From NCBI GenBank assembly GCA_963921275.4, contig OZ001293.3, positions 512,001 to 576,000 on the forward strand: a DNA stretch of 64,000 bases, written 5' to 3'. How positions within the stretch are numbered: the stretch's first letter is position 1; the number at the start of each line of letters is the position of its first letter. The notes under the pieces were generated by a model. It was not told where the DNA came from and made no database searches. It was given only the letters and a program-made list of their open reading frames with translations. This DNA is from an uncultured Hormoscilla sp. Lineage in GTDB: Bacteria; Cyanobacteriota; Cyanobacteriia; Cyanobacteriales; Desertifilaceae. A program made the translations under genes and the position numbers. Of the stretch, positions 2,285 through 52,656 are shown in pieces.

Positions 2285-2332
2285 AGTTTTTCTCCTTCAA
2301 ATTATGTCATCTTGATGTGCGTTGCTAATGGG

Positions 2333-2503
2333 TTAGCTGATAACCAATGCCGTCAACAGCAAAGAACCGACGAAGGTCATCGCTAGCAAGCCTTGCAGAA
2401 GGTAACGGCGTTGTTGCAGTCCGTCGGGATAGGAGCCATAGTACATTTTCGGCCCGATGGGATAGTTGTTGAGAATGCCGTTTTCGTTGGTTGTGGTGTA
2501 CAT
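2333..2503 (-). CDS. psb34: Ssl1498/Psb34-family light-harvesting-like protein, copy 1 (56 aa)
   Basis: Hand-translated MYTTTNENGILNNYPIGPKMYYGSYPDGLQQRRYLLQGLLAMTFVGSLLLTALVIS; G-LNNY...Y..YP...QQRRY..QG plus C-terminal TM helix; AAGGAG RBS; missed by the ORF track. Confidence 0.85.
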   Translation of the reverse strand: MYTTTNENGILNNYPIGPKMYYGSYPDGLQQRRYLLQGLLAMTFVGSLLLTALVIS

Positions 2504-2526
2504 TGTTGCTTCTCCTTCTTCAAGCT

Positions 2527-2544
2527 TCTGTAAACAAATGTAAC
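2527..2544 (-). promoter_or_regulatory. HLR1 (RpaB-binding) direct repeat; equivalents at 1916-1933, 2818-2835, 3109-3126 and 3427-3444
   Basis: Minus strand GTTACATT-N2-TTTACAGA closely matches the (G/T)TTACA(T/A)(T/A)-N2 repeat; a similar box lies ~25 nt upstream of five of the six small genes. Confidence 0.7.
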
Positions 2545-2623
2545 AACTTTTAAAGTTAAGTCAGGGTGACTTGACACTGAAATGCTTGTGATGTTAATCA
2601 CCCTTGCATACATAGAGGTGGAG

Positions 2624-2794
2624 TTAGCTGCACAGGAATGTAGTCAACAGCAATGAGCCGACGAAGGTCGTCGCTAGCAAGCCTTGCAGAAGGTAACGGC
2701 GTTGTTGCAGCCCGTCGGGATAGGAGCCATAGTACATTTTCGGCCCGATGGGATAGTTGTTGAGAATGCCGTTTTCGTTGGTTGTGGTGTACAT
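2624..2794 (-). CDS. psb34: Ssl1498/Psb34-family protein, copy 2
   Basis: 171-nt ORF near-identical to copy 1. Confidence 0.85.
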   Translation of the reverse strand: MYTTTNENGILNNYPIGPKMYYGSYPDGLQQRRYLLQGLLATTFVGSLLLTTFLCS

Positions 2795-2914
2795 TGTTGC
2801 TTCTCCTTCTTCAAGCTTCTGTAAACAAATGTAACAACTTTTAAAGTTCTGTTAGGGTGACTTGACACTGAAATGCTTGTGATGTTAATCACCCTTGCAT
2901 ACATAGAGGTGGAG

Positions 2915-3085
2915 TTAGCTGATAGCCAATGCTGTCAACAGCAAGGAACCGACGAAGGTCGTCGCTAGCAAGCCTTGCAGAAGGTAACGACGTTGTTGCA
3001 GCCCGTCGGGATAGGAGCCATAGTACATTTTCGGAGCGATGGGATAGTTGTTGAGGATGCCGCTTTCGTTGGTTGTGGTGTACAT
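2915..3085 (-). CDS. psb34: Ssl1498/Psb34-family protein, copy 3
   Basis: 171-nt ORF beginning MYTTTNESGILNNYPIAPKMYY. Confidence 0.85.
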   Translation of the reverse strand: MYTTTNESGILNNYPIAPKMYYGSYPDGLQQRRYLLQGLLATTFVGSLLLTALAIS

Positions 3086-3232
3086 GTTTGTTTCTCCTTG
3101 TCTGTCCTACTGTAAAGTAATGTAACAACTTGTAAAGTTATCTAACAGTGATCTGAAACCTATACAGTAGTGATCGATCTTAATCACATTTGCATACAGG
3201 GAAGCAGTGGCAGGTGGCGCGACCTCGTGGGG

Positions 3233-3403
3233 TTAGCTACAGGCCAATGCCGTCAACAGCAAGGAACCGACGAAGGTCGTCGCTAGCAAGCCTTGCAGAA
3301 GGTAACGGTGTTGTTGCAGTCCGTCGGGATAGGAGGCATAGTACATTTTGGGCGCGACGGGATAGTTGTTGAGAATGCCGTTTTCGTTGGTTGTGGTGTA
3401 CAT
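3233..3403 (-). CDS. psb34: Ssl1498/Psb34-family protein, copy 4
   Basis: 171-nt ORF beginning MYTTTNENGILNNYPVAPKMYYASYP. Confidence 0.85.
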   Translation of the reverse strand: MYTTTNENGILNNYPVAPKMYYASYPDGLQQHRYLLQGLLATTFVGSLLLTALACS

Positions 3404-3493
3404 TGTTGCTTCTCCTTGTCTGTCCTTCTATAAAGTAATGTAACAACTTGTAAAGTTATGTAACAGTGACGTGACAGGGAAATTAGCGTGACA

Positions 3494-4195
3494 TTAATCA
3501 CACTTACGTACATAGAGGCAGTGACGGGTGGCATGACTGATAGGAGTAGTAAAGGTAACAGTAGACTCAATGCAGGCACCCAAAGCTTCAGCGGTGCTGG
3601 CCAAAGCCTCTGCTTCTGCCGGCGTCGAGTGACCCCGATAGAGGACGGCCAAACCGCCAACTTTGAGAAATGGCAGGGCATATTCTAGGCAAACGGTAGC
3701 CGTTGCTACAGCACGCAGGAGGGCAAAGTCGTATTTTTCTCGATAATGGGGTTGTTGACCAATTGTTTCGGCTCTGCCGATCGCAGTGGTGGCATTCTCG
3801 ATGGCCATCTGTGCTAAGAGGGTTTGCAGAAATGCAATCTTTTTGCCGGTGGAATCGAGGAGGGTGAGTGAGGAGTGAGGAAAGGCGATCGCCACTGGCA
3901 ACCCCGGAAACCCCGCACCCGTACCAATATCGATCATCTGTGGATGATTGGGGGTTCCGGCATCATCGGTTAACAGAGGGGCGATGGGCCGCAAAGAATC
4001 CCAGAGGTGCTTCTCCCAAAAGGAGATCGGGTCGGTAATGCGAGTTAAATTGAGTTTAGCATTACCGGTCAGAATCAGTTGATAAAGGGATTGAAACAGT
4101 TGTTGTTGTTGTGATTCTGTTGGTTGCCAATGGAGAGTTTGCAGCCAAACATCGGTCATCTGGGGCAGCACTTGCTGTGGATGGGGTTCTGTCAT
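3494..4195 (-). CDS. rsmG: 16S rRNA m7G527 methyltransferase RsmG/GidB
   Basis: LNLTRI..., KHLWDSL, DIGTGAGFPG, RAE motifs; start taken at MTEPHP. Confidence 0.93.
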   Translation of the reverse strand: MTEPHPQQVLPQMTDVWLQTLHWQPTESQQQQLFQSLYQLILTGNAKLNLTRITDPISFWEKHLWDSLRPIAPLLTDDAGTPNHPQMIDIGTGAGFPGLPVAIAFPHSSLTLLDSTGKKIAFLQTLLAQMAIENATTAIGRAETIGQQPHYREKYDFALLRAVATATVCLEYALPFLKVGGLAVLYRGHSTPAEAEALASTAEALGACIESTVTFTTPISHATRHCLYVRKCD

Positions 4196-8733: not shown

Positions 8734-9681
8734 ATGTCTCAAAATAACCGCAACTCTCATCCTATCTTTCTGATCGGGGCGATCGCAGGCATAATAGGTG
8801 CGATCGCAGGAGTAATCGGTACATGCATTGCTGTACTGACTTACCTGGACATCAAACCTGACGAGCTTATTCCTTCTGCTGTCATCCCCACCCCACCGGT
8901 TGACTGGGAAAAGGCGACTCTTGCCAAAACCCTCACCGGGCATTCAAACACTGTCAGGTCGGTCGCGATCAGCCCTGATGGCAAGACTTTAGCCAGTGCC
9001 AGTAATGACAATACTATCAAAATCTGGAGTTTGGAGACATTTCGAGAAATCGCTACCCTCACCGGGCATTCAAGCATTGTCTGGTCTGTGGCCTTCAGCC
9101 CCGATGGCAAGACTTTAGCCAGTGCCAGTTTAGACGATACTATCAAAATCTGGAGTTTAGAGACATTAGGAGAAATCGCTACCCTCACCGGGCATTCTTC
9201 CTCAGTCAGTTCCGTCGCGTTCAGCCCAGATGGCAAGACTTTAGCCAGTGGCAGTTTAACGACTATTAAACTCTGGAGTTTGGAGACATTCGGAGAAATC
9301 GCTACCCTCGCCGGGCCTTCTAACTGGATCCTGTCCGTCGCCTTCAACTCAGATGGCGATGGCAACACTTTAGCCAGTGGTAGTTATGACAAGACTATCA
9401 AAATCTGGAGTTTGGAGACATACCGAGAAATCGTTACCCTCACCGGGCATTCAGACATTGTCTGGTCTGTCGTGTTCAGCCCCGATGGCAAGACTTTAAC
9501 CAGTGCCAGTAATGACAATACTATCAAAATCTGGAGTTTGGAGACATACCGAGAAATCGCTACCCTCACCGGGCATTCAAACTATGTTTAGTCCGTTGCC
9601 TTCAGCTCAGATGGCAAGACTTTAGCCAGTGGCAGTGATGACAAGACTATCAAGATTTGGCGGGCAGGAGCAAGCAAGTAA
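8734..9681 (+). pseudogene. membrane-anchored WD40-repeat protein with premature TAG at 9589
   Basis: About seven GHS...VAFSPDGKTLAS...TIKIW repeats; the repeat continues in frame past the TAG to TAA at 9681. Confidence 0.8.
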
Positions 9682-9808
9682 AAGGAAAAATAGTATTCTC
9701 CTGTTGTGAGATTTTCTGCAACATTACTGAACATATCGTCAACATTACTCTGCTATCTAGAGCGCCAGGGAAACCCAACCAGCTTGGTGAAGTATGCAGG
9801 TGCCTCTA

Positions 9809-10206: not shown

Positions 10207-10280
10207 GGTGCCTCTATCATACTGGATCGGGCAGGAGTATGTTATCCTAGGAAGAGAAGATTCAGATGGAGGGATAGTTT

Positions 10281-11214
10281 ATGAAAATTAATTTTATTAA
10301 TTTAAAACATTATTTTACCTTAAAAAAATCTTTGGTTCCGAGCAAAGCAAGGAAATTCTCATCAGCTTCTTAAATGCTATGCTCTATGAGGATAAAGAGA
10401 CAATTTCTGATTTGACCATCATTAACCCCTATCAGGCTCCCCGACTGCGGGGACTCAAAGATACTTACTTAGATGTCAAAGCTCAGTTGGTCGATAACAA
10501 GACAGTGATTATCGAGATGCAGGTGTTAAATTTGGAAGGTTTTGAGAAGCAGATTTTGTACAATGCGGCTAAAGCTTATTCCATTCAACTAGATGCCAGA
10601 GAAGATTATACCCTGTTAAATCCAGTAATTGCTTTGACGATTACGGACTTTAACATGTTTGCGTAATTCTCAAAAGTCACTTCCAAATTTGTCTTGAAAG
10701 AAAAGTAATTTCTGAGCGATTACCCTGTTGATGATATTGAGTTGGTGTTTGTGGAATTGCCTAAGTTTAACAAAGAATTGGAGAACTTGGAGACCACAGC
10801 AGATAATGGCTTTATTTTCTCAAGACTGCCAGGAAATTATAGACAGTACCCGAGACAATGTCCTCAGTTCCGGAAATAAAGAAAGCCTTTGAAATTGCGA
10901 ATATCGCCAATATGAATGCCTCAGAATTGGAAGATTTGGAAAAACGGGAAATCTATATCCACGACCAGCGAAATGCGCTCAAAAAGGCAGAAAAAAAGGC
11001 CAAAAAAGAAGGTCGCGAAATTGGACTCAAGGAAGGTAAAGAAATTGGGATGAAAGAAGGTCGCGAAATTGGGATCCAAGAAGGCCAAGAAATTGGGATG
11101 AAAACATCTCAAGAGGAAATCGCTAAGCGGCTACTTGATGTTTTAGATGAAGAAACGATTAGTCTGACTACAGGACTCAGCCTTGAGGATGTGCAAAAGT
11201 TGAAACTAGATTAA
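10281..11214 (+). pseudogene. Rpn/PD-(D/E)XK nuclease family, copy 1 (frameshifts and stops)
   Basis: Aligns to 11348-12259 with TAA at 10664 and 10706 plus indels. Confidence 0.85.
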
Positions 11215-11347
11215 TTTTCACGCTCGCCGCGATCTATTCTTAAATGTACAAACCAGGTTTTTCTCAAAATATGGTTTGTACATGATTATCAATCAAGAAT
11301 ATGTTATACTAGGAAAATAAGAGTCAAATGGAGGGATAGTTAAGTTA

Positions 11348-12259
11348 ATGAAGATTAGTTTCATTAATCCTAAGACAGATTTTGCCTTTAAGAAAATCTT
11401 TGGTTCCGAGCAAAGCAAGGAAATTCTCATCAGCTTCTTAAATGCTATGCTCTATGAGGGAAAAGATATAATTTCTGATTTAACCATCATTAACCCCTAT
11501 CAAGCTCCCCGACTGCGCGGACTCAAAGATACTTACTTAGATGTCAAAGCTCAGTTGGTCGATAACAAGACAGTGATTATCGAGATGCAGGTGTTAAATT
11601 TGGAGGGTTTTGAGAAGCGGATTTTGTACAATGCGGCTAAAGCTTATTCCATTCAACTAGATGCCGGAGAATATTATACCCTGTTAAATCCGGTAATTGC
11701 TTTAACTATTACGGACTTTAACATGTTTACAGAATTCTCAAAAGTCACTTCCAAATTTGTCTTGAAAGAAAAGGAATTCCTGAGCGATTACCCTGTTGAT
11801 GATATTGAGTTGGTGTTTGTGGAATTGCCCAAGTTTAACAAAGAATTGGAAAACTTGGAGACCATAGCAGATAAATGGCTTTATTTTCTCAAGACTGCCA
11901 GGAAATTAGAGACAGTACCCGAGACAATGTTCTCAGTTCCGGAAATCAAAAAAGCCTTTGAAATTGCGAATATCGCCAATATGAGTCCCTCAGAATTGGA
12001 AGATTTGGAAAAACGGGAAATCTATATCCACGACCAGCGGAATGCGATCAAAAAGGCGGAAAAAAAGGCCCAAAAAGAAGGTCGCGAAATTGGACTCAAG
12101 GAAGGTCGCGAAATTGGGATCGAAGAAGGCAAAGAAATTGGCATGAAAACATCTCAAGTGGAAATCGCTAAACGGCTGCTTGATGTTTTAGATGAAGAAA
12201 CGATTAGTTTGACTACAGGACTCAGCCTTGAGGATGTGCAAAAGTTGAAACTAGATTAA
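11348..12259 (+). CDS. Rpn family recombination-promoting nuclease/putative transposase (PDDEXK_2), copy 2
   Basis: INPKTDFAFKKIFG, LDVKA, IIEMQ, FVELPKF and C-terminal EG.E.G repeats. Confidence 0.9.
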   Translation: MKISFINPKTDFAFKKIFGSEQSKEILISFLNAMLYEGKDIISDLTIINPYQAPRLRGLKDTYLDVKAQLVDNKTVIIEMQVLNLEGFEKRILYNAAKAYSIQLDAGEYYTLLNPVIALTITDFNMFTEFSKVTSKFVLKEKEFLSDYPVDDIELVFVELPKFNKELENLETIADKWLYFLKTARKLETVPETMFSVPEIKKAFEIANIANMSPSELEDLEKREIYIHDQRNAIKKAEKKAQKEGREIGLKEGREIGIEEGKEIGMKTSQVEIAKRLLDVLDEETISLTTGLSLEDVQKLKLD

Positions 12260-12520
12260 TTTTCACGCTACGCTCGCCGCGATCTATTCTTAAATGTACA
12301 AACCAGGTTTTTCTCAAAATATGGTTTGTACATGATTATCAATCAAGAATATGTTATACTAGGAAAATAAGAGTCAAATGGAGGGATAGTTAATGAAGAT
12401 TAGTTTCATTAATCCTAAGACAGATTTTGCCTTTAAGAAAATCTTTGGTTCCGAGCAAAGCAAGGAAATTCTCATCAGCTTCTTAAATGCTATGCTCTAT
12501 GAGGGAGAAGATACAATTTC

Positions 12521-13458
12521 ATTAGGGGTCGAGCTGAGAATCACTTCTCAACCCTCCCGTATGGCTGCGCCACGCTGCGCGAACGGAACCGTGCATGCGA
12601 CTTTCACCGCACACGGCTACTGGGTATCAGGCCCAAATCATGGGTAGAATTACTAAGGATTACTCCCGTTGTCCCTTGCTACTTACACGTTTGCCCCTTG
12701 ATATTCATTCCTCATCCACAATATGGACGGGCCTATGACGTCTTAAGGCTACTTGCATCAGTAGTTTCCTAATATCACCGACCCGCGTCTGCGTATCCGT
12801 GGGCATTACTCGGCGTCTTCCGCATGCTCTTGTCCTGAAGGACACGGCTGGCGCTCCCGCAAGGGATACGGCATGCTCCAGACACCTTCGACGTCTGGAG
12901 CATGCTCTTGTCCTGAAGGACGCGGCATGCTCCAGACGTCGCCCAGGCATTAGCTTCTCGGGCCATCTCTCCCATACGTGGCTTGCGCTATGCGCTGCGC
13001 GCACGCTACGCGGACGCACATCTGACTGGTCCTGACGGACAGCACACGTAGGGTTACTTCGTTCCCCGGTATCATTTCACGATGTCTTTAGGCCTCACTT
13101 TACCCCGGCAGTTCTTTGAGTACGATATTGGCCCAAAATCAAAGAGCCAATACTAACTACTTCCCCTTTTGGGCCAGCGCTTAAAGCCTTATTTCGCTGG
13201 TTGATGGTTACGAGGCTTACATGAGTTTGCTTGTTCTGGCCATATACATCTTTCCTAGCGGAGTTGCCGGCTTAGGCTACCAGCTATCCTACATTTGAGT
13301 CCTCGCTTAACACCACGGCGATGTGGCTCCGCCGCATTGAGGACCGGTGTCACCCCCGCACTTGAGGGAGGGGAATTTAACAATAATGAGTACCAGAGTT
13401 TCTAGTTTCCTAGACTAGCGTTCCGTGTTTGACTACGTTAGGCTAGAACGAATCGCAC
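12521..13458 (-). ncRNA. ORF-less group II intron with internal micro-insertions
   Basis: Minus-strand 5' end GTGCGATTCGTTC; domain V AGCCGTGTGCGGTGAAAGTCGCATGCACGGTTC; 3' end TCGACCCCTAAT. Confidence 0.9.
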
Positions 13459-14114
13459 ATTAGGGGTCGAGCTGAGAATCACTTCTCAACCCTCCCGTAT
13501 GGCTGCGCCACGCTGCGCGAACGGAACCGTGCATGCGACTTTCACCGCACACGGCTACTGGGTATCAGGCCCAAATCATGGGTAGAATTACTAAGGATTA
13601 CTCCCGTTGTCCCTTGCTACTTACACGTTTGCCCCTTGATATTCATTCCTCATCCACAATATGGACGGGCTTATGACGTCTTAAGGCTACTTGCATCAGT
13701 AGTTTCCTAATATCACCGTTCCCCGGTATCATTTCACGATGTCTTTAGGCCCTCACTTTACCCCGGCAGTTCTTTGAGTACGATATTGGCCCAAAATCAA
13801 AGAGCCAATACTAACTACTTCCCCTTTTGGGCCAGCGCTTAAAGCCTTATTTCGCTGGTTGATGGTTACGAGGCTTACACGAGTTTGCTTGTTCTGGCCA
13901 TATACATCTTTCCTAGCGGAGTTGCCGGCTTAGGCTACCAGCTATCCTACATTTGAGTCCTCGCTTAACACCACGGCGATGTGGCTCCGCCGCATTGAGG
14001 ACCGGTGTCACCCGCACTTGAGGGAGGGGAATTTAACAATAATGAGTACCAGAGTTTCTAGTTTCCTAGACTAGCGTTCCGTGTTTGACTACGTTAGGCT
14101 AGAACGAATCGCAC
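13459..14114 (-). ncRNA. ORF-less group II intron, tandem copy with DII-DIII deleted
   Basis: Near-identical to 12521-13458 but lacks the segment equivalent to ~12781-13061; EBS1 UGAUUU matches its 5' exon AAATCA. Confidence 0.88.
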
Positions 14115-14989
14115 TGATTTAACCATCATTAACCCTATCAAGCTCCCCGACTGCGCGGACTCAAAGATACTTACTTAGATGTCAAAGCTCAGTTGGTCGA
14201 TAACAAGATAGTAATTATTGAGATGCAGGTGTTGAATTTGGAGGGTTTTGAGAAGCGGATTTTGTACAATGCGGCTAAAGCTTATTCTATTCAACTCGAT
14301 GCTGGAGAAGATTATACACTGCTGAATCCAGTAATTGCTTTGACGATTACGGACTTTAACATGTTTGCGGAATTCACAAAAGTCACTTCCAAGTTTGTCT
14401 TGAAAGAAAAGGAATTCCTGAGCGATTACCCTGTTGATGATATTGAGTTGGTGTTTGTAGAATTGCCCAAGTTTAACAAAGAATTGGAAAACTTGGAGAC
14501 CATAGCAGATAAATGGCTTTATTTTCTCAAGACTGCCAGGAAATTAGAGACAGTACCCGAGACAATGTCGTCAATTCCGGAAATCAAAAAAGCCTTTGAG
14601 ATTGCGAATATAGCCAACATGAGTCTTTCAGAGTTGGAAGATTTGAAAAAACGAGAAATCTATATCCACGACCAGCGAAATGCGATCAAAAAGGCAAAAA
14701 AAGAAGGTCGAGAAATTGGGATCGAAGAAGGCAAAGAAATTGGCATGAAAACATCTCAAGTGGAAATCGCTAAACGGCTGCTTGATGTTTTAGATGAAGA
14801 AACGATTAGTTTGACTACAGGACTCAGCCTTGAGGATGTGCAAAAGTTGAAACTAGATTAATTTTCACGCTCGCCGCGATCTATTCTTAAATGTACAAAC
14901 CAGGTTTTTCTCAAAATATGGTTTGTACATGATTATCAATCAAGAATATGTTATACTAGGAAAATAAGAGTCAAATGGAGGGATAGTTA

Positions 14990-15865
14990 ATGAAGATTAG
15001 TTTCATTAATCCTAAGACAGATTTTGCCTTTAAGAAAATCTTTAATTCCGAGCAAAGCAAGGAAATTCTCATCAGCTTCTTAAATGCTATGCTCTATGAG
15101 GGAGAAGATACAATTTCTGATTTAACCATCATTAACCCCTATCAAGCTCCCCGACTGCGCGGACTCAAAGATACTTACTTAGATGTCAAAGCTCAGTTGG
15201 TCGATAACAAGACAGTAATTATTGAGATGCAGGTGTTGAATTTGGAGGGTTTTGAGAAGCGGATTTTGTACAATGCGGCTAAAGCTTATTCTATTCAACT
15301 CGATGCTGGAGAAGATTATACACTGCTGAATCCAGTAATTGCTTTGACGATTACGGACTTTAACATGTTTGCGGAATTCACAAAAGTCACTTCCAAGTTT
15401 GTCTTGAAAGAAAAGGAATTCCTGAGCGATTACCCTGTTGATGATATTGAGTTGGTGTTTGTAGAATTGCCCAAGTTTAACAAAGAATTGGAAAACTTAA
15501 AGACCATAGCAGATAAATGGCTTTATTTTCTCAAGACTGCCAGGAAATTAGAGACAGTACCCGAGACAATGTCGTCAATTCCGGAAATCAAAAAAGCCTT
15601 TGAGATTGCGAATATAGCCAACATGAGTCCCTCAGAGTTGGAAGATTTGGAAAAACGAGAAATCTATATCCACGACCAGCGAAATGCGATCAAAAAGGCA
15701 AAAAAAGAAGGTCGAGAAATTGGGATCGAAGAAGGCAAAGAAATTGGCATGAAAACATCTCAAGTGGAAATCGCTAAACGGCTGCTTGATGTTTTAGATG
15801 AAGAAACGATTAGTCTGACTACAGGACTCAGCCTTGAGGATGTGCAAAAGTTGAAACTAGATTAA
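14990..15865 (+). CDS. Rpn family nuclease, copy 4
   Basis: Near-identical to copy 2 with fewer C-terminal tetrad repeats. Confidence 0.9.
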   Translation: MKISFINPKTDFAFKKIFNSEQSKEILISFLNAMLYEGEDTISDLTIINPYQAPRLRGLKDTYLDVKAQLVDNKTVIIEMQVLNLEGFEKRILYNAAKAYSIQLDAGEDYTLLNPVIALTITDFNMFAEFTKVTSKFVLKEKEFLSDYPVDDIELVFVELPKFNKELENLKTIADKWLYFLKTARKLETVPETMSSIPEIKKAFEIANIANMSPSELEDLEKREIYIHDQRNAIKKAKKEGREIGIEEGKEIGMKTSQVEIAKRLLDVLDEETISLTTGLSLEDVQKLKLD

Positions 15866-15923
15866 TTTTCACGCTCGCCCCGATCGTTTCCTGGTGAGGT
15901 TGGGTTAATGCACGAAACCCAAC

Positions 15924-16109
15924 CTACAGATCGCCTCCCGACCTTGCCTCTATTAGCTTTCGCGCCACATCCCGGGCTATTGACAAGGTTTCAGTAATGG
16001 TTCTTCCCTGTGCGACCAACCCTTGCAGATCCTCAGAGGTTGCCAGATAAACTCCTTCTGGTAGTTTTTCGATCTGGATATTCAGCAATCTTTCCATGTA
16101 GTTTTTCAT
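15924..16109 (-). CDS. HicB-like/DUF1902 antitoxin-type small protein
   Basis: YLATSEDLQGLVAQGRTITE motif; no partner toxin gene seen. Confidence 0.65.
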   Translation of the reverse strand: MKNYMERLLNIQIEKLPEGVYLATSEDLQGLVAQGRTITETLSIARDVARKLIEARSGGDL

Positions 16110-16696: not shown

Positions 16697-18991
16697 GGGT
16701 ACATCTCAGTTAGGCGATAAGTAATTATACTTAGTGCTTGTCTCCCTCAAAACGGTACATAATTTAGGCACTGTTGACCACCCTTGACCCATGAACTCCC
16801 AAAAGCAGGCTGAACTCCAGCAACATCTTGACGCGATTGCCGCGATTCTCTACCAGGAAGCCGACCCCACTGAACTCACCACCCTTGAAGGCATTGAGAA
16901 AAACGTTCGTGCGCTTGCCCAAGAACACGTCTGGCCTCAACTAGGAATTTTTTTATCAACACGGCGACTTCCCGCCGCACCGGAAAACAGCGCACCCTGA
17001 CCAGTATCCTGGGCAAACTAACCCTCACCACTGCTCAAGCCCAACAACTGCAAGTTAAACCGGGAACTCGTTGGAGTCCGTATGTGGAAAAATGTTGTTG
17101 GGTCGTCAGTGCCAATGCCTCTTACCAGAGAGCCGATTTTTCGGGCCGTCCGCGGACCATACAAGATCTCGCGATGCTGACTGGGGTGAGCATCTCCCAC
17201 AGTACGCTCCAACGCTTTGTTCAACGAGAGGACTGGTCTGAGGTAGTGCGATTCGTTCCGGCATAAGCCAGTAGGTGAAAGTCGGGTCTGGCTCTATCAG
17301 CCAGATAACTCTGGTTATCATGGGGGTTAAATTCCCCTTCCCCAGGTACGGGGGTCGAGGGTACTACCGGTCGGAGGTGCTGCGGAGTCACATCACCGTG
17401 GTGTGGAGCGAGGACTTAAATGTAGGATAACTGGCAGCCTAAGCCGGTGACGCCGCTAGGAAAGATGTTAATGGTTAGAACAAGCGAACCTATGTAAACC
17501 TCGTTAACCAGAACCAGCGGAAGAAGGCTTATGCGCTTGCCCAAAAAGGGAAATGGTAGTTAGTATTAGCTCTTGCCTCTGGCTAATAACGTACTCAAAG
17601 AACTCTCGGGGTATAGTAGGAACCTAAAAGCATCGCGAAATGATACCAGGGAACGGAGTAACCTCTCGTGAGCTGTCCCCATTTGGACAAGTTAGATGTA
17701 AAGCGCAAGCCACGAAGAGGAAGGATGTCCTAAGAAGCCAACGCCCGGGGTAATGCTTGTGGATATGCAGACGTAGGACGGATATGGTAAGACACCCTTG
17801 GGAAAAGTAACCTTAATGTCACAGAACTAGGAAGAAATTCCAAAAGTACGAATCTTGGATTCAAATCTTAGCCAGGTAAAGTTCAGAGCCCCTACGAAAA
17901 GCGGAAAGCAGAATGGGGAAGATGTTAGTAAAGAGCGGCGAGTATGGTTTGCTGAACTATCCTCCGCGAACCTTCCGGAGCTAAGTACTTAAACGGTCCA
18001 ATAGGATTGACCATAAGGGGTAAAATTTCAAAGGGTAAGGGACAACGGGGGTAACCCCCAGTAATCCTACTGATGACAGCAGCTTACCAACCAGTAGCCG
18101 TGTGCGGTAAAAGTCGCTCTTCAGGTTTCGCTCTTGGAGGGTTGGTACGTGAGTACCAGCTCGACCCCGACCAAGATAGCTGAACCGATTCAGGAGCTCA
18201 GCTTGGATGGCGGCATGATTCGCCTTCGTACCGATTTTTCGGGCCGTCCGCGGACCGTGGAGGGTCAACCTGGTGAGTGGCGAGAATACAAAGCCTTAAA
18301 TGTCCATGAGCAAGGCAGTGTGGCTTTCTTCAAGGATAATCAAGGGCTGCTTGAGTGGGTGAATGCCCAGCCCCTAGGGGCGCAGTTCACCGGTCTCGGA
18401 GATGGTCATGATGGGGTGTGGAACATTTTCAGTGGTATCGGGACACCAGAACAACGTATCGAAGTGCTCGATTGGTATCACCTAATGGAAAATGCCAATA
18501 AGGTGCAAGGGACACCGGCTCAATCCGATTTTTCGGGCCGTCCGCGGACCGTGCAGATCCGATTTTTCGGGCCGTCCGCGGACCGTGCACTCCTGTGGCG
18601 AGGGGAGACCCAGAGGGCGATTAGTTATCTGCGCCAACAGCAATGTCGGGGAGCCACAGGGTTGATCAACTACTTGAAGCACCATCAGACGCGCATCATT
18701 GACTACCAGGCTAGCCCTCCTGGCGTCGGGCCGCTGCGCGAACGGGCAGGCAGCTCGGCACTCGATTGGCTCTGGTCGGGTTGAGTCCCTGGTGAAACAA
18801 ATTGGGTTAAGGGTGAAATTACCGGGGGCACAATGGCGAGCCGAGAATGTGCCGATTTTTCGGGCCGTCCGCGGACCGTAGGTGTTGAAGCATCGCTGTG
18901 CCTACCTGAATGGCGCATTAGTTGCCTAATCAGACTCAGTAAATCCACTTTTGCTGAGTAAATATACTCATCGCCTAACTGAGATGCACCC
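16697..18991 (+). mobile_element. ISKra4-family IS (degenerate) carrying a group II intron and micro-insertions
   Basis: TIR GGGTRCATCTCAGTTAGGCGAT at both ends; 8-bp TSD GTCTGCTG; transposase motifs LDGG.IRLRT, GDGHDGVWN, LDWYHL.EN, IGSG.VES. Confidence 0.9.
17246..18172 (+). ncRNA. ORF-less group II intron in the ISKra4 transposase gene
   Basis: GTGCGATTCGTTC start; domain V near 18096; EBS1 UGCCUC (17574-79) pairs with exon GAGGTA; removal through 18172 restores EV|KIAEPIQE. Confidence 0.9.
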
Positions 18992-20079: not shown

Positions 20080-22252
20080 TCATTCGTAAAACTGGATTAT
20101 TTCCCCAAAATTTGCTTCACCGTATTCCACCCAGGCGATACAATTTCCGACGGCGTCGTACAATTCGATCGTATCTCCATGATTGCGCAAACTCATCGAG
20201 TCCGTGCGATTCGTTCTAGCCTAACGTGGTCAAACACGGAACGCTAGCCCGGTTTCATTAGCCAGGAACTCTGACCGCATGGGGGTTAAATTCCCCTCCC
20301 CCCAGGTACGGGGGTGACACCGGTCCTCGGTGCTACGAAGCGACATCATCGTGGTGCTAAGCGAGGACTCAAATGTAGGATAACTGGCAGCCTAAGCCGG
20401 TGACGCCGCTAGGAAAGATATCCAAGGTTAGAGCAGGCAAACATGTGCAAGCCTCGTTATAAGGAACCAGCGAAATAAGGCTATATGCGCTGGCCTAAAA
20501 AGGAAATGGTAGCTAGTATTAGTTTTAGACTCTGGCTAATATAGTACTCAAATAGCTCCCGGGGTATAGTGTGGACCTAAAGGTATCGCGAAATGTTGTT
20601 AGGGAACGAAGTAACCTCTCGTGTGCTGTCCATCAGGACAAGTTAGATGTTAAGCGCAAGCCACGGGGGGAGGGATGGCCCAAGAAGCGAATGCCCGGGG
20701 TAATTCCTGGGATAACATCTACAGTAATGTAGATGATGCTGGGTAGCCAGCGCTGACGTGGGTCGGTGATACTAGGAAGCTGCTGGAATGAGTAATCCTA
20801 AAAAGCCACGGAACTAATCCGAAACGCAAGTGGAGGATAAGGTATGGATAACTGGTAAAACTGACTTGAAAATGGTGATACTAACGGTTATCAGAACAAC
20901 CACTCGCTAAACCAGGAAAGGGAAGAAAAGACAGGCGGCAAGGGCTAACGGAAGTAATTCCTATTAAGTCTACCTATGAAAAGGGCCTAGTACCCAGTAG
21001 CCGGATGCGGTGAAAATCGCAAGTCCGGTTCCTCAAGGGAGGGTCGGGAAGCGATTCCCGGCTCGACCCCATCCAGACTCGATCTAGTCACCCGAAACCG
21101 CTTCACTTCCCCGGAGGCGATCGCGCCATCAAGTGGTTCCGCCCCACTATAGCTATCGCGCATTTCCCAACCTGTCAAGTCGATCGCTTCGGAACTAATA
21201 TTTTTCAACTCCACCCATTCCTTACCTTCATCCCGCCCGCGAGGGTCTGGTAAAGCCGCATAGATGGCGATCGGGCCATTTTTCTTTCCGAGCGTGCTAT
21301 CCGATCGTAGCACGCGGGGCACATTTCCCATAAATATCGGGAAAAACGAGCGAATATAAACACCTTTGCTGCCATCTAGTTCCGTATTTCTCAACAGCAC
21401 TAACTTATAATTAGCATCATCAAGGGTCGTGCGCTGACTATCCTCTCTCAGCATACCACACAAGCTTTCATAATACATCACCGTCCCCATTGCTATTTCG
21501 CATTCCGGACTCGTGCCCACAAAGAACCCACTCTCTTCCTTAAACAGTTTTGCGATCTGGTTTACCTGCTTATCCGCGTAATTCCACTCCATCTGTAACG
21601 TGACCATCCTAGGATTTTTCGCCCCCGCGTCTCCTTGCCGATAATACTTATAACCCCAATAATTTACTCGCTTCTTTTTCTCATCCAGGTAAAATTTAAT
21701 CCACGAATGATACCCCGATACTTTTCCCTGACTTACCTCCTCCCTGAATCCTTGATAATACCTGCCTTCCCCCACAAATGTATGTTCAAACCCCGACGCA
21801 TATTCAGTCCCATTTCCATAGTAATAGTTAGTATAGGGCTGAAACCAAATTTGGTACAACTTTTCTCGAAATTATAACTCCGATAGGTTAATCCTCAAGT
21901 CCTTGCCGATGTAATCAAAGGCGATCGCCATCGGTTCCGTTGCCACGATCGCATCCATAAACTCATTAATTTCCCTCGCTTCTGCCTCCGTCATCTCCTC
22001 CGTTCCTCTGGTGCTGATCACATAATTATCCAAAAGTCTCATAAAACTTTTATAAGTTGGCCCGCCAAACTTCTCCTCATTTACCCGATAGAAGAGAGGA
22101 CGATCTGCCAGAGTGCGATCGCCCGAAGCTTGCACCTGTTCGTCCAGGAGAATATCAGCATTTTCATTCTCCCATTCTCCCGACTCCTTGCGAGATGATA
22201 CGGATAATTGATTGCGATCTCCGTCCCAAAGCCTTTGATAAATATCGCTCAT
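20080..22252 (-). pseudogene. EndoU/XendoU-family endoribonuclease fused to a lamin-tail-like domain; internal TAA (21872) and antisense intron
   Basis: SGFEHTFVGE...GYHSWIKFYLDE motif; EWVELKN..S..IDLTGW; after intron removal SL|DSMSLRNHGDTIELYD...FYE* is in frame. Confidence 0.8.
20204..21074 (+). ncRNA. ORF-less group II intron, 871-nt family copy 1
   Basis: GTGCG start; DV AGCCGGATGCGGTGAAAATCGCAAGTCCGGTTC; ends TCGACCCCATCC. Confidence 0.93.
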
Positions 22253-24176: not shown

Positions 24177-26080
24177 ATGTTCAAGTTCAAAAAAATCCTC
24201 GCGCTTATCGGTCAAACAGCTTTAATCGGTTTAATCTCATTAGGATTGACAGAAATCGCCTTCCGAGTATACAATAAAATTAACCCCAGTTTTATTTTCT
24301 ACGATCGGTCATACAATCGCTTTCGCGGCAAACCCAAGGCCCTGGACTATGATTTCACCTTAAACTCAAAGGGGTTTAAGGATGTTGAATTTAACCAGAA
24401 AAAATCTTCAGGTATATACCGCATATTAGGGATAGGCGATTCCTTTGCTTATGGAGTGGTTTCGTATCAGTACAATTACTATACTCGCGTAGAATAAAAA
24501 CTGAATCAACGAGAGAAAAAATTTGAAATCATTAATATGGGGATTCCCAACTTGGGGCCGAAAGATTATCTCTCAATTTTGGTGAATGAAGGATTGGAAT
24601 TAAATCCAGATATGGCGATCGTCAGTTTTTTCATTGGCAATGATTTTTCCGATATGCAACCTACCAGAAGCCTATATTCATATGTAGCCTCATTTATTAA
24701 GTTTGCGATCGACCTGCAGAAAAGCTATGAAGGACGGCAGATTCACGGAAATATGGTATATGAAGATGACCGACCGAGTATGGAGGCAGAAAAATTTTTG
24801 GAAATCCAAATCAACAGAAGCTATATTCACCTAAAGCAAAATGAATATTTCGAGAATCAGCTCAAGTCAGCAGTCAGTTATTTAAGCAAAATCAAGGAAA
24901 TATGTGATGCCAAAAATATTGATTTTTTGGTAGTAATAATTCCTGACGAGTTACAAGTAAACGAAAAATTGCAATCTCAAGTAATTCAAGCATTAGAATC
25001 TCATCCAGATAATTTTGATTTTACACTACCAAATCGATTGTTGTCTCGGGAACTGGAAAGTGAAAAGATTGAATATCTAGACATGTTAAGTGAGTTGAAG
25101 TCGGTTTCTCAATCGAAAAGAGTTTGTGCGATTCGTTCTAGCCTAACGTGGTCAAACACGGAACGCTAGCCCGGTTTCATTAGCCGGGAACTCTGACCGC
25201 ATGGGGGTTAAATTCCCCTCCCCCCAGGTACGGGGGTGACACCGGTCCTCGGTGCTACGAAGCGACATCATCGTGGTGCTAAGCGAGGACTCAAATGTAG
25301 GATAACTGGCAGCCTAAGCCGGTGACGCCGCTAGGAAAGATATCCAAGGTTAGAGCAGGCAAACATGTGCAAGCCTCGTTATAAGGAACCAGCGAAATAA
25401 GGCTATATGCGCTGGCCTAAAAAGGAAATGGTAGCTAGTATTAGTTTTAGACTCTGGCTAATATAGTACTCAAATAGCTCCCGGGGTATAGTGTGGACCT
25501 AAAGGTATCGCGAAATGTTGTTAGGGAACGAAGTAACCTCTCGTGTGCTGTCCATCAGGACAAGTTAGATGTTAAGCGCAAGCCACGGGGGGAGGGATGG
25601 CCCAAGAAGCGAATGCCCGGGGTAATTCCTGGGATAACATCTACAGTAATGTAGATGATGCTGGGTAGCCAGCGCTGACGTGGGTCGGTGATACTAGGAA
25701 GCTGCTGGAATGAGTAATCCTAAAAAGCCACGGAACTAATCCGAAACGCAAGTGGAGGATAAGGTATGGATAACTGGTAAAACTGACTTGAAAATGGTGA
25801 TACTAACGGTTATCAGAACAACCACTCGCTAAACCAGGAAAGGGAAGAAAAGACAGGCGGCAAGGGCTAACGGAAGTAATTCCTATTAAGTCTACCTATG
25901 AAAAGGGCCTAGTACCCAGTAGCCGGATGCGGTGAAAATCGCAAGTCCGGTTCCTCAAGGGAGGGTCGGGAAGCGATTCCCGGCTCGACCCCATCCACAA
26001 ACCTCAAGATACCCACTGGAATATTGCCGGAAACGAGTTGGCAGCAGAAATGATTTATAATATCTATCAGAGAATGCCGA
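24177..26080 (+). pseudogene. SGNH/GDSL hydrolase-like protein with internal TAA (24495) and a sense-strand intron
   Basis: RILGIGDSF, GND; splicing restores RV-Y-KPQDTHWNIAGN (DxH motif); 3' end approximate. Confidence 0.8.
25126..25996 (+). ncRNA. ORF-less group II intron, 871-nt family copy 2
   Basis: Near-identical to copy 1; flanks GAGTTT|...|ACAAACC. Confidence 0.93.
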
Positions 26081-33274: not shown

Positions 33275-35070
<1,796 letters not shown>

Positions 35071-48107: not shown

Positions 48108-48437
48108 AGAAGTAAGGGTTGGTGGCGAATAGATGAAGTTGGTCTCCGGAATACTCGGAGGGAAATCTGTAGCTAGAGTATGTCTTCATATCGGGGGGAC
48201 TGGTCCTGCTGCATGGGCATTGATGTAAGATCTGCAAGATGCCTGTGTTGGATAGGCTTCTTGTCTGTTGTTGTAGACCAGCAGTAAATAGGGCTGCTTG
48301 TGATAATATTCTCGATGTTAATGGTAACGAGGCTGCAGAGACTAGACTATATCCGAGCACCGGTCCGATGGCCCACTATCTGGATTTTACTTACTGCTGC
48401 TTATACACTGTGAATGTACACGTTTAGAGAGAATGTC

Positions 48438-50561
48438 ATGGAACAAATAGTCAGACCAGTACAAGCAACTCCGCTGATATCTCCAGCGGGTACGATCGTG
48501 AGCTTTGATCTCGAATATACGACTGACCCGGCTAACTCGGGAACGTCGGGTTTGGGACTGCGATTGCATTGGGACTCAACTCAGCTGACTTTCGATAGTC
48601 TGGAGAATGTTTTCGAGGGTGATTTTTTGGCAACCGGGACGCCGATTGATGATACTGATGATTTGGATGGCGATCCAAATACGGATAGGTTGATTATCGT
48701 TAGTTGGGTAGATTTTACTGGCGGAACTTGGCCAAATGACCCCTCAACTCTGCCAGTGGTACTCTACACGGCAAACTTCACGACATCACGGGATTTTGCG
48801 GACGCGACAACGCTTAATTTTACGGCCTCATCCACATCACCGGGTTTCGAGTTAGTTCCCTCTCCTGTAATTATCCAGGAAGAAGAAGTCTTACCTCCAG
48901 CAATAGTCATGATCGCAGCCCGGGCTACCGATCCTACCGCAGCCGAGGAAGGTGGAGACCCGGGGACATTTACCATCTCCCGTACAGGCAGCGCCACCGA
49001 AGCGCTAACAGTCCAGTACAGCGTGGCCGGTTCTGCTGAGGCCGCAGACTATAGTGCAGAACTGACAGGCACCGCCACTATGGCAGCTGGTCAATCTTCG
49101 GTGGAGATTACTATTACTCCCATTGACGACGATGAACTAGAAGGGCCAGAGACAGTAGAGCTGACCATAATAGATGCAGCTGACTATGACTTGAGTGCTG
49201 AAACCGTGGCCACTGTGACTATTGCAGACAATGAAGATGCGATCGTACCTCCAGCCATAGCCACAGTCGCAGTCCAGGCCACCGATCCCATAGCGGCCGA
49301 AGAAGGCAGCGACCCAGCCACATTCACCATCACCCGCACAGGTAGCACCACCGAGGCCCTGCCAGTCCAGTACAGCCTGACCCGCACTACAGAGACCACC
49401 GGTAGCACCACTGAACAGACCAGCATCGTTATCATACCCGCAGGCCAATCATCAACAGAAGTCGTCATTGCTCCCGTTGACGACGATATACCAGAAGGTC
49501 TAGAGACAATAGAGCTGGCCATAATAGACACAGCCGACTATGATCTAAGCACCGAATCCGTAGCCACCATAACCATCACCGACAACGATGCAAACACAAA
49601 TGGCCGCAGCGAAGGTCCAGACTTGGCCATCAGCATCACAGACGCGCCAGACCAAGCCCGAGAAGCTAATCTGCTGACTTACACCCTGACTGTGATCAAT
49701 GAAGGAGACAGGGCCGCAACCGATATCGTAGTCGAGAATACCTTGCCCTTTGGCTTCCGGACCACTGATATAGGTGCCGGTAACTTCACAGCCAGTCAAA
49801 CTGGTAACGTGATTACCTTCACAGGTGGTAGCCTAGATGCTGGAGCCAACGCCATGCTGACGATCGCAGGTACAGCTCCCACAACCGGCCCATTACCCAT
49901 AACAGTCAATAACCGAGCCGAGGTGGACCCCGATAACGCGATCGCGGAAGGTGACGAAACCAATAACGTTGCCACAGAAACCACCACAGTAACGCCGCTA
50001 GCCGACCCGCTTGAGATCCCGGGCACAGACGGCGACGATCAGCTGATCGGCACCCAAGTCAGCGATCTCATAGAAGGCCGAGCAGGAAATGACTTGATCA
50101 TAGGTGTGGCCAGTGCCGACTTGTTAAGTGGCGGAGCCGATAACGACAACATCTTTGGCCAACTGGGTAACGACATACTCAATGGCGGTTCAGGAGACGA
50201 CACGCTCAATGGGGGTGAAGGCAACGATACACTTAGCGGCGGCCCTGGCAAAGACTTCCTCGAAGGAGGTCCAGACGGTGATGCCTTCGCGCTGCCAAAT
50301 GCCACAGGAATCACCAACATCGATCAGGCAGATGTGATCTTGGCCTATCAGGTAGGTTTTGATACGATCCTCCTGACAGAGGGGCTAACCTTCGAAGACC
50401 TACGTCTGGAGCCAACACGGCTCACCATAGAATTCGGAAGTCAGACATTCACCGCAGAAAGCACAGCCATCATCAATACCTCGTCGAATGACATCTTAGC
50501 AGTCGTTTTCGAGGTGACACCTGACCGGATAATGGACGGTAGTGACTTCGTTCCTGTATAA
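48438..50561 (+). CDS. secreted Ca-binding protein with Calx-beta-like, DUF11 and RTX repeats
   Basis: Two Calx-beta-like repeats, DL.IS.TD.PD...LTYT motif, GGxGxDxL nonapeptides. Confidence 0.8.
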   Translation: MEQIVRPVQATPLISPAGTIVSFDLEYTTDPANSGTSGLGLRLHWDSTQLTFDSLENVFEGDFLATGTPIDDTDDLDGDPNTDRLIIVSWVDFTGGTWPNDPSTLPVVLYTANFTTSRDFADATTLNFTASSTSPGFELVPSPVIIQEEEVLPPAIVMIAARATDPTAAEEGGDPGTFTISRTGSATEALTVQYSVAGSAEAADYSAELTGTATMAAGQSSVEITITPIDDDELEGPETVELTIIDAADYDLSAETVATVTIADNEDAIVPPAIATVAVQATDPIAAEEGSDPATFTITRTGSTTEALPVQYSLTRTTETTGSTTEQTSIVIIPAGQSSTEVVIAPVDDDIPEGLETIELAIIDTADYDLSTESVATITITDNDANTNGRSEGPDLAISITDAPDQAREANLLTYTLTVINEGDRAATDIVVENTLPFGFRTTDIGAGNFTASQTGNVITFTGGSLDAGANAMLTIAGTAPTTGPLPITVNNRAEVDPDNAIAEGDETNNVATETTTVTPLADPLEIPGTDGDDQLIGTQVSDLIEGRAGNDLIIGVASADLLSGGADNDNIFGQLGNDILNGGSGDDTLNGGEGNDTLSGGPGKDFLEGGPDGDAFALPNATGITNIDQADVILAYQVGFDTILLTEGLTFEDLRLEPTRLTIEFGSQTFTAESTAIINTSSNDILAVVFEVTPDRIMDGSDFVPV

Positions 50562-50741
50562 GTCGGACTATTCTAAGGGAGTCCCTACCCCTTGACAGAA
50601 AAAGCGATCGCCTTGAAACCCGGTATGAGCAAAAACCCGGGTTTCAAGTGCGATTACGATGTCTCGGCGATGTGCGATTAATGTGCTCCGCTTAGAGGGG
50701 CGAAGGCTAGTGGTTAAAATACTGCGGGGGATTGCAGAAAG

Positions 50742-52656
50742 ATGGACATAGACCAGAATGGGATAATAGATGCATTGACGGACGGCATCCTGATTCTCCG
50801 CTATCTGCTTGGGATCGGAGGTGATGCTCTGACGCAAAACGCGATCGGCCCGCGGACGGTCCGAAAAATCGGACCAGGTGCGATCCGTTCGGATCCCACT
50901 GATGTTGTAGCGTACTTGGAACAGTTGCGCGACAGTTTGTTGGATGTGGATGGTAATGGGTCGGCAGATGCTCTGAACAGACGGTATCCTAATCATTCGT
51001 TATTTGTTTAGGATCTCAGGTGATGCTCTAGTAGATGGCGCGATCGGCCCTAATGCTACCCGTACTACTACAGAGGCGATCGCCTCCTTCCTGGAACAAT
51101 TTAACAGCCACGCAACAGCAGGAATGATAGAATTCTCTCAAGCTAGCTACAGCGTAGACGAGAATGGCGTTAATGCCACGATCGCAGTGACGCGGTCGGG
51201 TGGCAGCGATGGAGAAGTAACGGTTAATTATACTACCTTGGATGGCAACGCGACAGCAGGAGATGATTACATTAGTCAGGAGGGCGTACTCACTTTTGCA
51301 GATGGGGAAACTTTTCAAACCTTTGAGATCTCGATCGCGGACGATGCGGTGGAGGAGCTTGCGGAAACGATCAACTTGGTTTTGTCTAACCCTGTAAATG
51401 GAGCAACTCTGGGAAGCAACGATCGGGCTATACTTACAATAATAAATAATGATCGGTCCGAGAGTAACGGTTTTAATATAGAATTAGACTATCGGTTTGA
51501 TAGCACGGGATTTTTCGATGACCTCGATCGCCGGGCCGCCTTAGCAGCGGTAGCTGAGATCTGGGAGAGTTTTATCCAAGATGATTTTACCAACGTGCCA
51601 GCGGGAATCTCCTTTGCGGTGGAAAATCCGACCACAGGGGAGACGGAAATGGTTGTCTTGGACGCAGAAATTGACGATCTGCTGATCTTTGTAGGGGCCC
51701 GATTGCTCCCGGGTAATACTAGAGCCCAAGCTGGACCGGATGGCGTGAATGCTGTGGGCAGTATTTTCTCCAACCGACTCCAAGGCAGTAATTTTGAACC
51801 TTGGGTGGGGAGTATGACCTTCGCGCAGGAGGCGAATTGGTTTTTTGACCTCACGCCGGAAACAGATGATGACATTCCTTTCGGACAAAGCGACTTTATA
51901 ACTACCGCTTTGCACGAGATCGGACATATTTTGGGCATTGGTATTGCTGATATTTTCCAAGAAATAGGTGCGGGAGCAGCTTTTGATGGTTTTAATGCCA
52001 TAGCTGTCAATGGAGGCGATCCTATTCCTCTAGAAAGTAATTTAGTTCATGTCCAAGATGGGTTTCTGAATAATACTGTGCTGATGGACCCCAGAATTGC
52101 TGCCGGAACGCGGAAATTACCAACTCAGGTTGACTTGGCCCTGTTGGCAGATATTGGCTATGAAATATCAGGCTTTACAGCTCAAGGGGAAACGCCAGCG
52201 ATCGCCACTCCCGAAGATGACGTCACCATCTTCGGCACCATTATAGCTGATACCATCGACGGTTTGGGTGGCTCCGACCAAATTCAAGGCGATCGGGGCG
52301 ACGATCTGCTTGATGGTGGTGACGGAGACGATCTGATCTTTGGCGAAGAAGGTAACGATACTCTTAATGGTGGTGTTGACGATGACATCCTCATCGGTGG
52401 GGAGGGAATAGATACATTTTTCTTTGCCGCCAACAATGGCGCAGATAGGATCGAAGATTTTGATATCGCTGAGGATGCGATCGCCCTAGTAGCTACGCTA
52501 GGTTTTGCTACCGGACAAGATGTGATAGAAGCAATTACGACACGAGGTAATGTTACTGGTGGAGGACGGTTTGCAGTCGTCACCCTCAGCCCGGAAAACC
52601 AAATCATAATTTTAGCTGATAATGATATTACCGCTGCTAATTTTATAATTGTCTGA
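50742..52656 (+). pseudogene. Calx-beta, zinc-metalloprotease (HEIGH) and RTX protein, frameshifted near 50975
   Basis: DIDQNG..DALTDG repeats, Calx-beta motif, TALHEIGHILG, RTX repeats. Confidence 0.7.

Follow-up and report, generated by a model that had tools for sequence, protein, structure and literature searches.

A family of group II introns without open reading frames in an uncultured Hormoscilla sp., with 3' splice sites apparently eight nucleotides after the domain VI adenosine

Group II introns generally end in an adenine followed by a pyrimidine (AY), which is the consensus of the whole class (PMC4424553), and their 3' splice site typically lies 6-7 nucleotides (nt) after the branch adenosine of domain VI (DVI), with 7 nt given for subgroup IIB2 (PMC9294222). 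The deviations in spacing listed in this review come only from Bacillus, namely a 53-56 nt insertion and the +4 site of B.a.I2 (PMC9294222; PMC1865049). IIB2 introns are said to occur only in cyanobacteria and chloroplasts and to be set apart from IIB1 introns by the central wheel, domain V (DV) and DVI (PMC8643678), and they are recognised by a 5' GUGCGAUUC and an insertion at the base of domain I (PMC4649490). RmInt1 and other class D introns end in CC and form a G-C gamma-gamma' pair, G-C being as frequent at gamma as A-U (PMC4238363); AY is therefore a consensus and not a requirement. Here we describe a 64,000-nt stretch of DNA from an uncultured Hormoscilla sp. (assembly GCA_963921275.4, contig OZ001293.3, positions 512,001 to 576,000; hereafter the window), which carries several copies of a group II intron family whose 3' ends depart from these rules. 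An initial annotation had proposed that these introns end 8 nt after the bulged adenosine of DVI (A+8), in CC, CU or AU.

The window has a cyanobacterial look (47% G+C, with 41 copies of GCGATCGC) and contains nine copies of one group II intron family lacking open reading frames (ORF-less), 656-943 nt long, together with one unrelated ORF-less intron. All nine family copies start with GUGCGAUUC (GUGCGA), in agreement with the GUGYG start of group II introns. The segment 20997-21074 comprises DV, DVI and the 3' tail of an 871-nt, ORF-less IIB2-type intron with an AUCC end at 20204-21074 on the plus strand, which lies antisense within an XendoU-LTD gene on the minus strand and is delimited by its 5' GUGCGAUUC, its 3' flank and the lengths of host homologues. 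Three further 871-nt copies with the same AUCC end, 99-100% identical in sequence, were placed on the plus strand by alignment: one at 25126-25996, sense within an SGNH/AlgX-like hydrolase gene and corroborated by homologues, one at 55782-56652, nested in another intron (a twintron) and carrying a single C-to-U change in DV, and one at 61872-62742, whose host is ambiguous. The related copies on the plus strand are found at 33802-34636 (GACU end, sense within a Ser/Thr kinase gene, junction set by frame), at 17246-18172 (GACC end, sense within a conserved gene of no assigned family, set by alignment, frames and homologues), and at 52725-53667 (GACC end, intergenic, set by alignment). The latter two share the same mismatches in the lower helix of DV, to which the 52725 copy adds extra GC-rich insertions. 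The remaining two, both with a UAAU end and recognised by alignment, form a head-to-tail pair on the minus strand, with the downstream member at 12521-13458, antisense in a PDDEXK_2 (Rpn-like) gene and supported by a paralogue of that gene, and the upstream member, which has an internal deletion, at 13459-14114. The tails among the nine copies are accordingly AUCC (four), GACC (two), GACU (one) and UAAU (two).

Comparison with Rfam RF00029 (domains V-VI), which the initial annotation had proposed as a check, recognised DV-DVI above the gathering cut-off at 20996-21072 (44.4 bits), 25918-25994, 62664-62740 and 34558-34635, and just below it at 56574-56650 (39.2 bits); on the minus strand, the matches at 12587-12618 and 13525-13556 cover DV only. 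No match at E<=1 was obtained for 17246-18172 or 52725-53667, both of which were recognised by alignment. The RF00029 alignment over 20996-21072, however, stops at the AU of AUCC, 2 nt before the true end.

In every copy, DVI ends in ...CUCGACCCC and is followed by four bases, AUCC, GACC, GACU or UAAU, so that the end corresponds to A+8. For the 20204 intron, the candidate branch A occupies position 21066 and the final C position 21074, which gives an 8-nt spacer, CCCCAUCC (21067-21074), delimited by flanks, homologues and covariation, with the last C as gamma'. Five independent lines of sequence evidence (identical copies, head-to-tail pair, empty site, frames and homologues) confirmed that the 3' end lies 8 nt after the DVI adenosine, as had been claimed. 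The four 99-100% identical copies share their sequence through CC and then diverge, the next bases being A, A, A and G. The minus-strand pair joins as ...CCCCUAAU|GUGCGAUUCG (UAAU|GUGCG), with zero exon bases in between. Excision of 12521-14114 from the PD-(D/E)XK (Rpn-like) gene yields DNA that matches the intact paralogue at 14990 over the junction without a single difference, which bears out the exact match reported previously. With offsets counted relative to the proposed end, the frames over the junction reopen solely at 0 or -3 for the introns at 17246, 25126 and 33802. For the 20204 intron the longest frame is also found at 0/-3 (265/41 amino acids, aa) versus 266/28 aa at -1, making these offsets the best ones and not the exclusive ones. 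The 55782 copy is located in non-coding intron RNA, and the 61872 copy is ambiguous, as offset 0 opens a frame on the plus strand and offset -2 one on the minus strand, neither of which matches a family.

Homologues of the interrupted genes narrow the offset further. All eight uninterrupted homologues of the XendoU-LTD host have the offset-0 length, the best one being 92% identical (RSSR-DSM versus RSSL-DSM around the junction). The same length is seen in 13/13 uninterrupted homologues of the SGNH/AlgX host (best 87% identical), where the junction codon U|AC encodes a conserved Tyr (12 Y and 1 F in the homologues), and in 13 of the 14 uninterrupted homologues of the 17246 host, the best two being 97% and 86% identical. 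Since these lengths match offset 0, the offset is fixed at 0 for all three hosts. For the kinase host (33802, GACU end) 16 homologues were aligned, in which the length of the activation loop varies, so that -3, 0 and +3 are indistinguishable and the support comes from the frame. The statement that the EndoU, SGNH and kinase hosts all rejoin in frame was thus upheld, for the kinase by its frame only. Among 15 complete loci from other genomes, four have long ORFs across the junction only at 0/-3, namely L014 (UACC), L037 (AGCC), L039 (UAAU) and L043 (GACC); one locus is ambiguous and ten are uninformative. The junction frame of L014 rules out, for that locus, an AC end one base earlier.

Consequently, seven of the nine window copies end in CC or CU instead of AY, while the two UAAU copies end in AU. 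The non-AY ends reported by the initial annotation therefore stand for these seven, but their novelty was overstated, as the CC end has a precedent in RmInt1 and class D (PMC4238363).

DV of the 20204 intron (20999-21030, from the RF00029 alignment and folding) shows the AGC triad, a 2-nt bulge and a GNRA loop (GAAA) as expected for group II introns. The minimum-energy fold of DVI (21037-21069) comprises a 3-bp GGG/CCC basal helix, a 1x2 internal loop in which the unpaired candidate branch A (21066) lies opposite GA, and a 5-nt tail. The unpaired A typical of group II introns is present, yet it lies 8 nt instead of 6-7 nt from the end. The spacer measures 8 nt in 9/9 window copies and in at least 24 related loci, against the 7 nt of IIB2 introns, and the additional C fits into either the tail or the loop around the branch A, in registers that are 0.6 kcal/mol apart. 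The unrelated intron at 55306-57061 (plus strand), which is also ORF-less and forms the outer part of the twintron, served as an internal control: by its fold it has a single bulged A, a 4-bp basal helix, a 7-nt spacer (A+GUUUAAC) ending in an AAC tail and a 3-nt UGA linker between DV and DVI, in keeping with its earlier description as canonical. Relative to this outer intron, the family has a CUCA or CGAA linker versus UGA, and a tail of 4-5 nt versus 3 nt.

A scan of public genomes with a DV pattern retrieved at least 48 loci, all of them cyanobacterial among the matches listed, and the lineage spread obtained in this way is a lower bound. At least 24 loci carry CGACCCC followed by 4 nt, 23 from Hormoscilla assemblies and one from Phormidium, and their penultimate base is C in 19 and A in five. 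The nearest relatives among the matches listed are protein-encoding introns; at least 21 such sister loci from Nostoc, Coleofasciculus, Calothrix, Anabaena and others carry CGACCC followed by UAAC (7), UACC (13) or UAGC (1), and two further fetched loci have variant stems, one of them with UAUC. The sister (CGACCC) introns appear by alignment to have a 7-nt spacer. Among the matches listed, the number of bases from DV to the GGG of DVI is equal in the two groups, and the sole difference in DVI is one extra C in the C-run of the 3' strand. The equal count implies that the change separating the 8-nt group from its sisters is confined to the 3' strand and consists of this one C. Upstream of DV, ten sampled sister members and one 8-nt member, L042 (UAAC end), carry a long open frame in which an HNH-like motif is seen.

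We then examined pairing partners in an alignment of 25 complete 8-nt introns (16 fetched loci and the nine window copies, about 15 distinct sequences), using a blind scan for the intron column that best complements each position after the branch A. Locus L027, which is misaligned and has a mis-assigned 5' end, was left out of the gamma and EBS1 (exon-binding site 1) counts and included in the EBS3 count of 25. The best column for A+8 gave 20 G-C and four A-U pairs with no mismatches, or 19 G-C and four A-U without L027, that is 23/23 Watson-Crick pairs. In the 20204 intron this column is the G at 20673, directly 5' of GA and domain III, which we assign by its position to gamma in J2/3, the segment that joins domains II and III. 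Gamma is A in the kinase intron (34270) and in the two UAAU introns, and the A-U state occurs in two separate clades of a tree of 24 introns (window and L004-L048) that was built without the gamma columns. The covariation between the J2/3 base and the last intron base noted earlier, G with final C and A with final U, is fully borne out by these counts. For A+9, the first base of the 3' exon, the best partner is the U between GGGGUA and AG at 20567, a candidate EBS3, with 12 U-A, four G-C, one C-G and three G-U pairs and five mismatches (n=25), as expected of subgroup IIB with its pairing between EBS3 and intron-binding site 3 (IBS3). EBS1 (AGACUC, 20527-20532) was located by the same scan in the loop of a domain I hairpin, where six consecutive columns pair with positions -1 to -6 of the 5' exon (19-22 of 23 paired, with three to four pair types). 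No partner is claimed for A+5, A+6 or A+7, whose best scan columns trace to single lineages. Besides, the tail types AUCC, AGCC and UAAU recur on distant branches of the 24-intron tree and no partner column was found for them, which hints either that few tail types are tolerated or that recombination has occurred.

On these grounds we regard it as probable that the family consists of ORF-less derivatives of cyanobacterial IIB2-type (chloroplast-like) introns, in which one extra C lengthens the spacer from 7 to 8 nt, the 3' site is fixed by gamma-gamma' and EBS3-IBS3, and the penultimate base is free. The single extra C would have arisen in the C-run directly 3' of the branch adenosine. The 3' splice site would then be set by two tertiary pairs, that of the last intron base with the first J2/3 base and that of the first exon base with EBS3, and by neither a measured distance nor an AY dinucleotide, so that a one-base change in the distance to the branch would be tolerated. 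With the penultimate base free to be C or A, most copies would end in CC or CU. The A at -8 presumably acts as the branch point, the copies with intact DV may undergo splicing in vivo, aided by a reverse transcriptase provided in trans, and the penultimate C might replace the usual G1-A contact, perhaps via a G1-C pair. More tentatively, and with less than even confidence, these introns may represent a IIB2-derived lineage in which the 8-nt spacer is constitutive and the penultimate base unconstrained (C or A in the 8-nt group, with UAAC, UACC and UAGC tails in the sisters and UAUC in one variant, at putative boundaries). If this holds true, the contact between G1 and the penultimate A would be dispensable or replaced in the 8-nt clade; CCCC opposite GGG, with its two near-isoenergetic registers, would restore the one-nucleotide strand-shifting that IIB2 introns are said to lack; and the lineage would offer a natural system on how spacer length and branch-bulge register set the 3' splice site.

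Several observations weigh against the explanation by one extra C and two guiding pairs. The covariation sample is phylogenetically shallow, and column 557 tracks the same clades nearly as well as the gamma column; because of this the scan alone is not proof, and its weight comes from the winning column sitting where gamma is expected. EBS3 and IBS3 are mismatched in 5/25 introns, among them the kinase intron, where U faces U, and the Rpn introns, where A faces G, and position -1 of EBS1 is mismatched in three of the four identical copies. For the sister UACC tails, whose 5' exons fall outside the 1300-nt flanks, an alternative AC end at 6 nt is compatible with the data. Several copies, moreover, appear degenerate. 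In the 3' strand of the lower DV helix, the 17246 and 52725 introns show UUCA in place of the GCAC of their relatives; both are probably splicing-dead, the former also folding poorly, in which case 17246, being sense in its host gene, would inactivate that gene. The linker between DV and DVI holds a GC-rich hairpin of 21 nt in both Rpn copies, and the upstream one (13459-14114) lacks about 280 nt of its middle. Several copies, including those at 17246 and 52725 and the Rpn pair, are therefore probably dead on this sequence evidence; four of the nine lie between genes or run antisense to the gene that hosts them; a scan of 21 large ORFs in the window revealed no reverse transcriptase, and no intron-encoded protein (IEP) was found within it, all nine copies being ORF-less. 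These defects, positions and the missing reverse transcriptase favour the view that the copies are fossils, whose odd 3' ends are products of neutral decay and are used by no splicing reaction. Against it stand the compensatory G-C and A-U changes of gamma-gamma' in two clades, the EBS3-IBS3 covariation, the recurrence of the same tail types in at least 24 loci of other genomes, and the intact state of DV and DVI, whose fold z-scores are strong. Recent reverse splicing is likewise implied by the four near-identical copies, which are inserted where IBS1 and IBS3 match, and the recent spread of one AUCC variant to four sites implies, from sequence comparison, that the RNA which reverse-spliced had exactly these ends. 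We consider it unlikely that decay accounts for the 3' ends.

It is conceivable, too, that the introns end at a canonical AU two bases earlier (21072, with a 6-nt spacer) and that CC belongs to the 3' exon or target site, as the Rfam consensus alignment stops at AU and CC follows AU in all four identical copies. With an offset of -2, however, the frame is lost in four hosts (XendoU, SGNH, kinase and that of 17246), whereas offset 0 reproduces the length of 8/8, 13/13 and 13/14 homologues together with the conserved Tyr, and the scan yields no known tertiary partner for A+6, leaving an AU end with a negligible probability. The initial annotation had instead favoured a structural variant of its own kind, with a one-nucleotide displacement of DVI on both sides, a longer linker being coupled to a longer tail. 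When compared with the outer intron, this agrees with the CUCA/CGAA linker and the tail of 4-5 nt, and the claim that the linker is about 1 nt longer is correct in that comparison. It does not extend to the sister introns, which have a 7-nt spacer by alignment and an equal DV-to-GGG count, so that linker length is not coupled to the 8-nt spacer. In addition, it costs 0.6 kcal/mol to take the extra C into the branch loop, with the distance from helix to splice site unchanged. A displacement on both sides is thus not supported and very unlikely, as the sister introns differ only by the extra C on the 3' strand.

Among the closest known counterparts of the family are the cyanobacterial IIB2 (CL2-lineage) introns, such as Tr.e.I7 of Trichodesmium (PMC4649490) and the set of PMC8643678, with which it shares the 5' GUGCGAUUC, extra stem-loops in domain I, EBS1/EBS3 recognition and a cyanobacterial host. 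The IIB2/CL2 features are present as GUGCGAUUC and two hairpins at intron positions 13-63 at the base of domain I, the latter in the minimum-energy fold only; the fold of the whole intron lacked the six-domain wheel and was used for these two hairpins only. The window family differs from those introns in its 8-nt spacer (7 nt being stated in PMC9294222), in having no ORF and in a penultimate base that is mostly C. Like RmInt1 of Sinorhizobium meliloti and class D, it combines a CC end with a G-C gamma pair and a C-run near the 3' splice site that renders the register ambiguous (PMC4238363). RmInt1, however, is of class IIB3/D with another 5' region, and its C-run spans the splice site into the exon, whereas that of the IIB2-like window introns lies beside the branch A. 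The 5' sequence and the domain I insertion point to IIB2 instead of class D, the CC end and the G-C gamma pair being the sole shared features. The 3' site also lies further from DVI, set by gamma-gamma' and EBS3-IBS3, in the Bacillus class B introns with a 'domain VII' (B.c.I4) and in B.a.I2 with its +4 site (PMC1865049; PMC9294222). Those introns have a structured insertion of 53-56 nt between DVI and the 3' site, or a site 4 nt downstream, in contrast to the constitutive single-base shift and the tail of 4-5 nt seen here. Neither an IIB2 lineage with an 8-nt spacer nor cyanobacterial introns with CC/CU ends turned up in our literature search; such ends may be recorded in the intron database, in subscription papers or in supplementary tables, which lay outside the search. 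A constitutive 8-nt IIB2 lineage whose penultimate base is free thus looks like a minor variant that has not been listed. It is a modest variation on what is known and does not amount to a new kind of intron.

Such a variant bears on genome annotation, as boundary-calling rules presume AY and a spacer of 6-7 nt, and the Rfam alignment ends 2 nt short in the present case. According to the paper on the bacterial intron database, 25% of introns receive no prediction from its boundary tool (PMC3245105). Introns of this 8-nt family would be mis-trimmed by 1-2 nt, leading to frameshifted predictions of the host proteins. Furthermore, the family represents a natural series with the same core and varied tails (AUCC, GACC, UACC, AGCC, GACU, UAAC and UAAU), which could serve to ask whether gamma-gamma' and EBS3-IBS3 suffice to choose the site of the second step and whether the contact of the first base with the penultimate one matters. 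Flexibility of the spacer between branch and splice site has been proposed and is thought to have been exploited in the evolution of the spliceosome (PMC9294222), a proposal on which the tail series bears as well.

Some features of the copies and their surroundings deserve mention. In the twintron, the -1 exon base (G) of the inner copy at 55782-56652 mismatches EBS1. A second GUGCGA motif lies at 61812-61871, 60 nt upstream of the intron at 61872, and resembles an intron 5' end, but no DV follows downstream and it was rejected as an intron. The region 10275-15994 harbours an array of PDDEXK_2 (Rpn-like) paralogues, at least five in number and each about 1 kb long, of which one is split by the intron pair and others are fragmented. 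The PD-(D/E)XK host of 12521-14114 has itself lost 1 nt some 20 nt beyond the junction, which makes it a pseudogene. The kinase frame (33458-33799) begins only about 115 aa ahead of its intron, so that the N-terminal, ATP-binding portion of the domain is missing, and a second disruption may lie further upstream in this gene. In the 17246 host gene and just beyond it, five exact copies of a 24-nt element, GATTTTTCGGGCCGTCCGCGGACC, lie in 17135-18877 and are read in frame as DFSGRPRT, and a sixth copy with two mismatches is found at 50847-50870 on the minus strand, zero copies being expected by chance. The element is also present in the 97% identical homologue of the 17246 host and is missing from the other aligned homologues. 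Repeats with a period of 126 nt, together with a 291-nt tandem array of four copies, occupy 8851-9762 and 2332-3522; by eye we take the translation of the 126-nt repeats to be WD40-like. Finally, directly upstream of the intergenic intron at 52725 lies a pair of large ORFs (48414-52653) that contain Calx-beta, DUF11/CARDB and RTX calcium-binding repeats.

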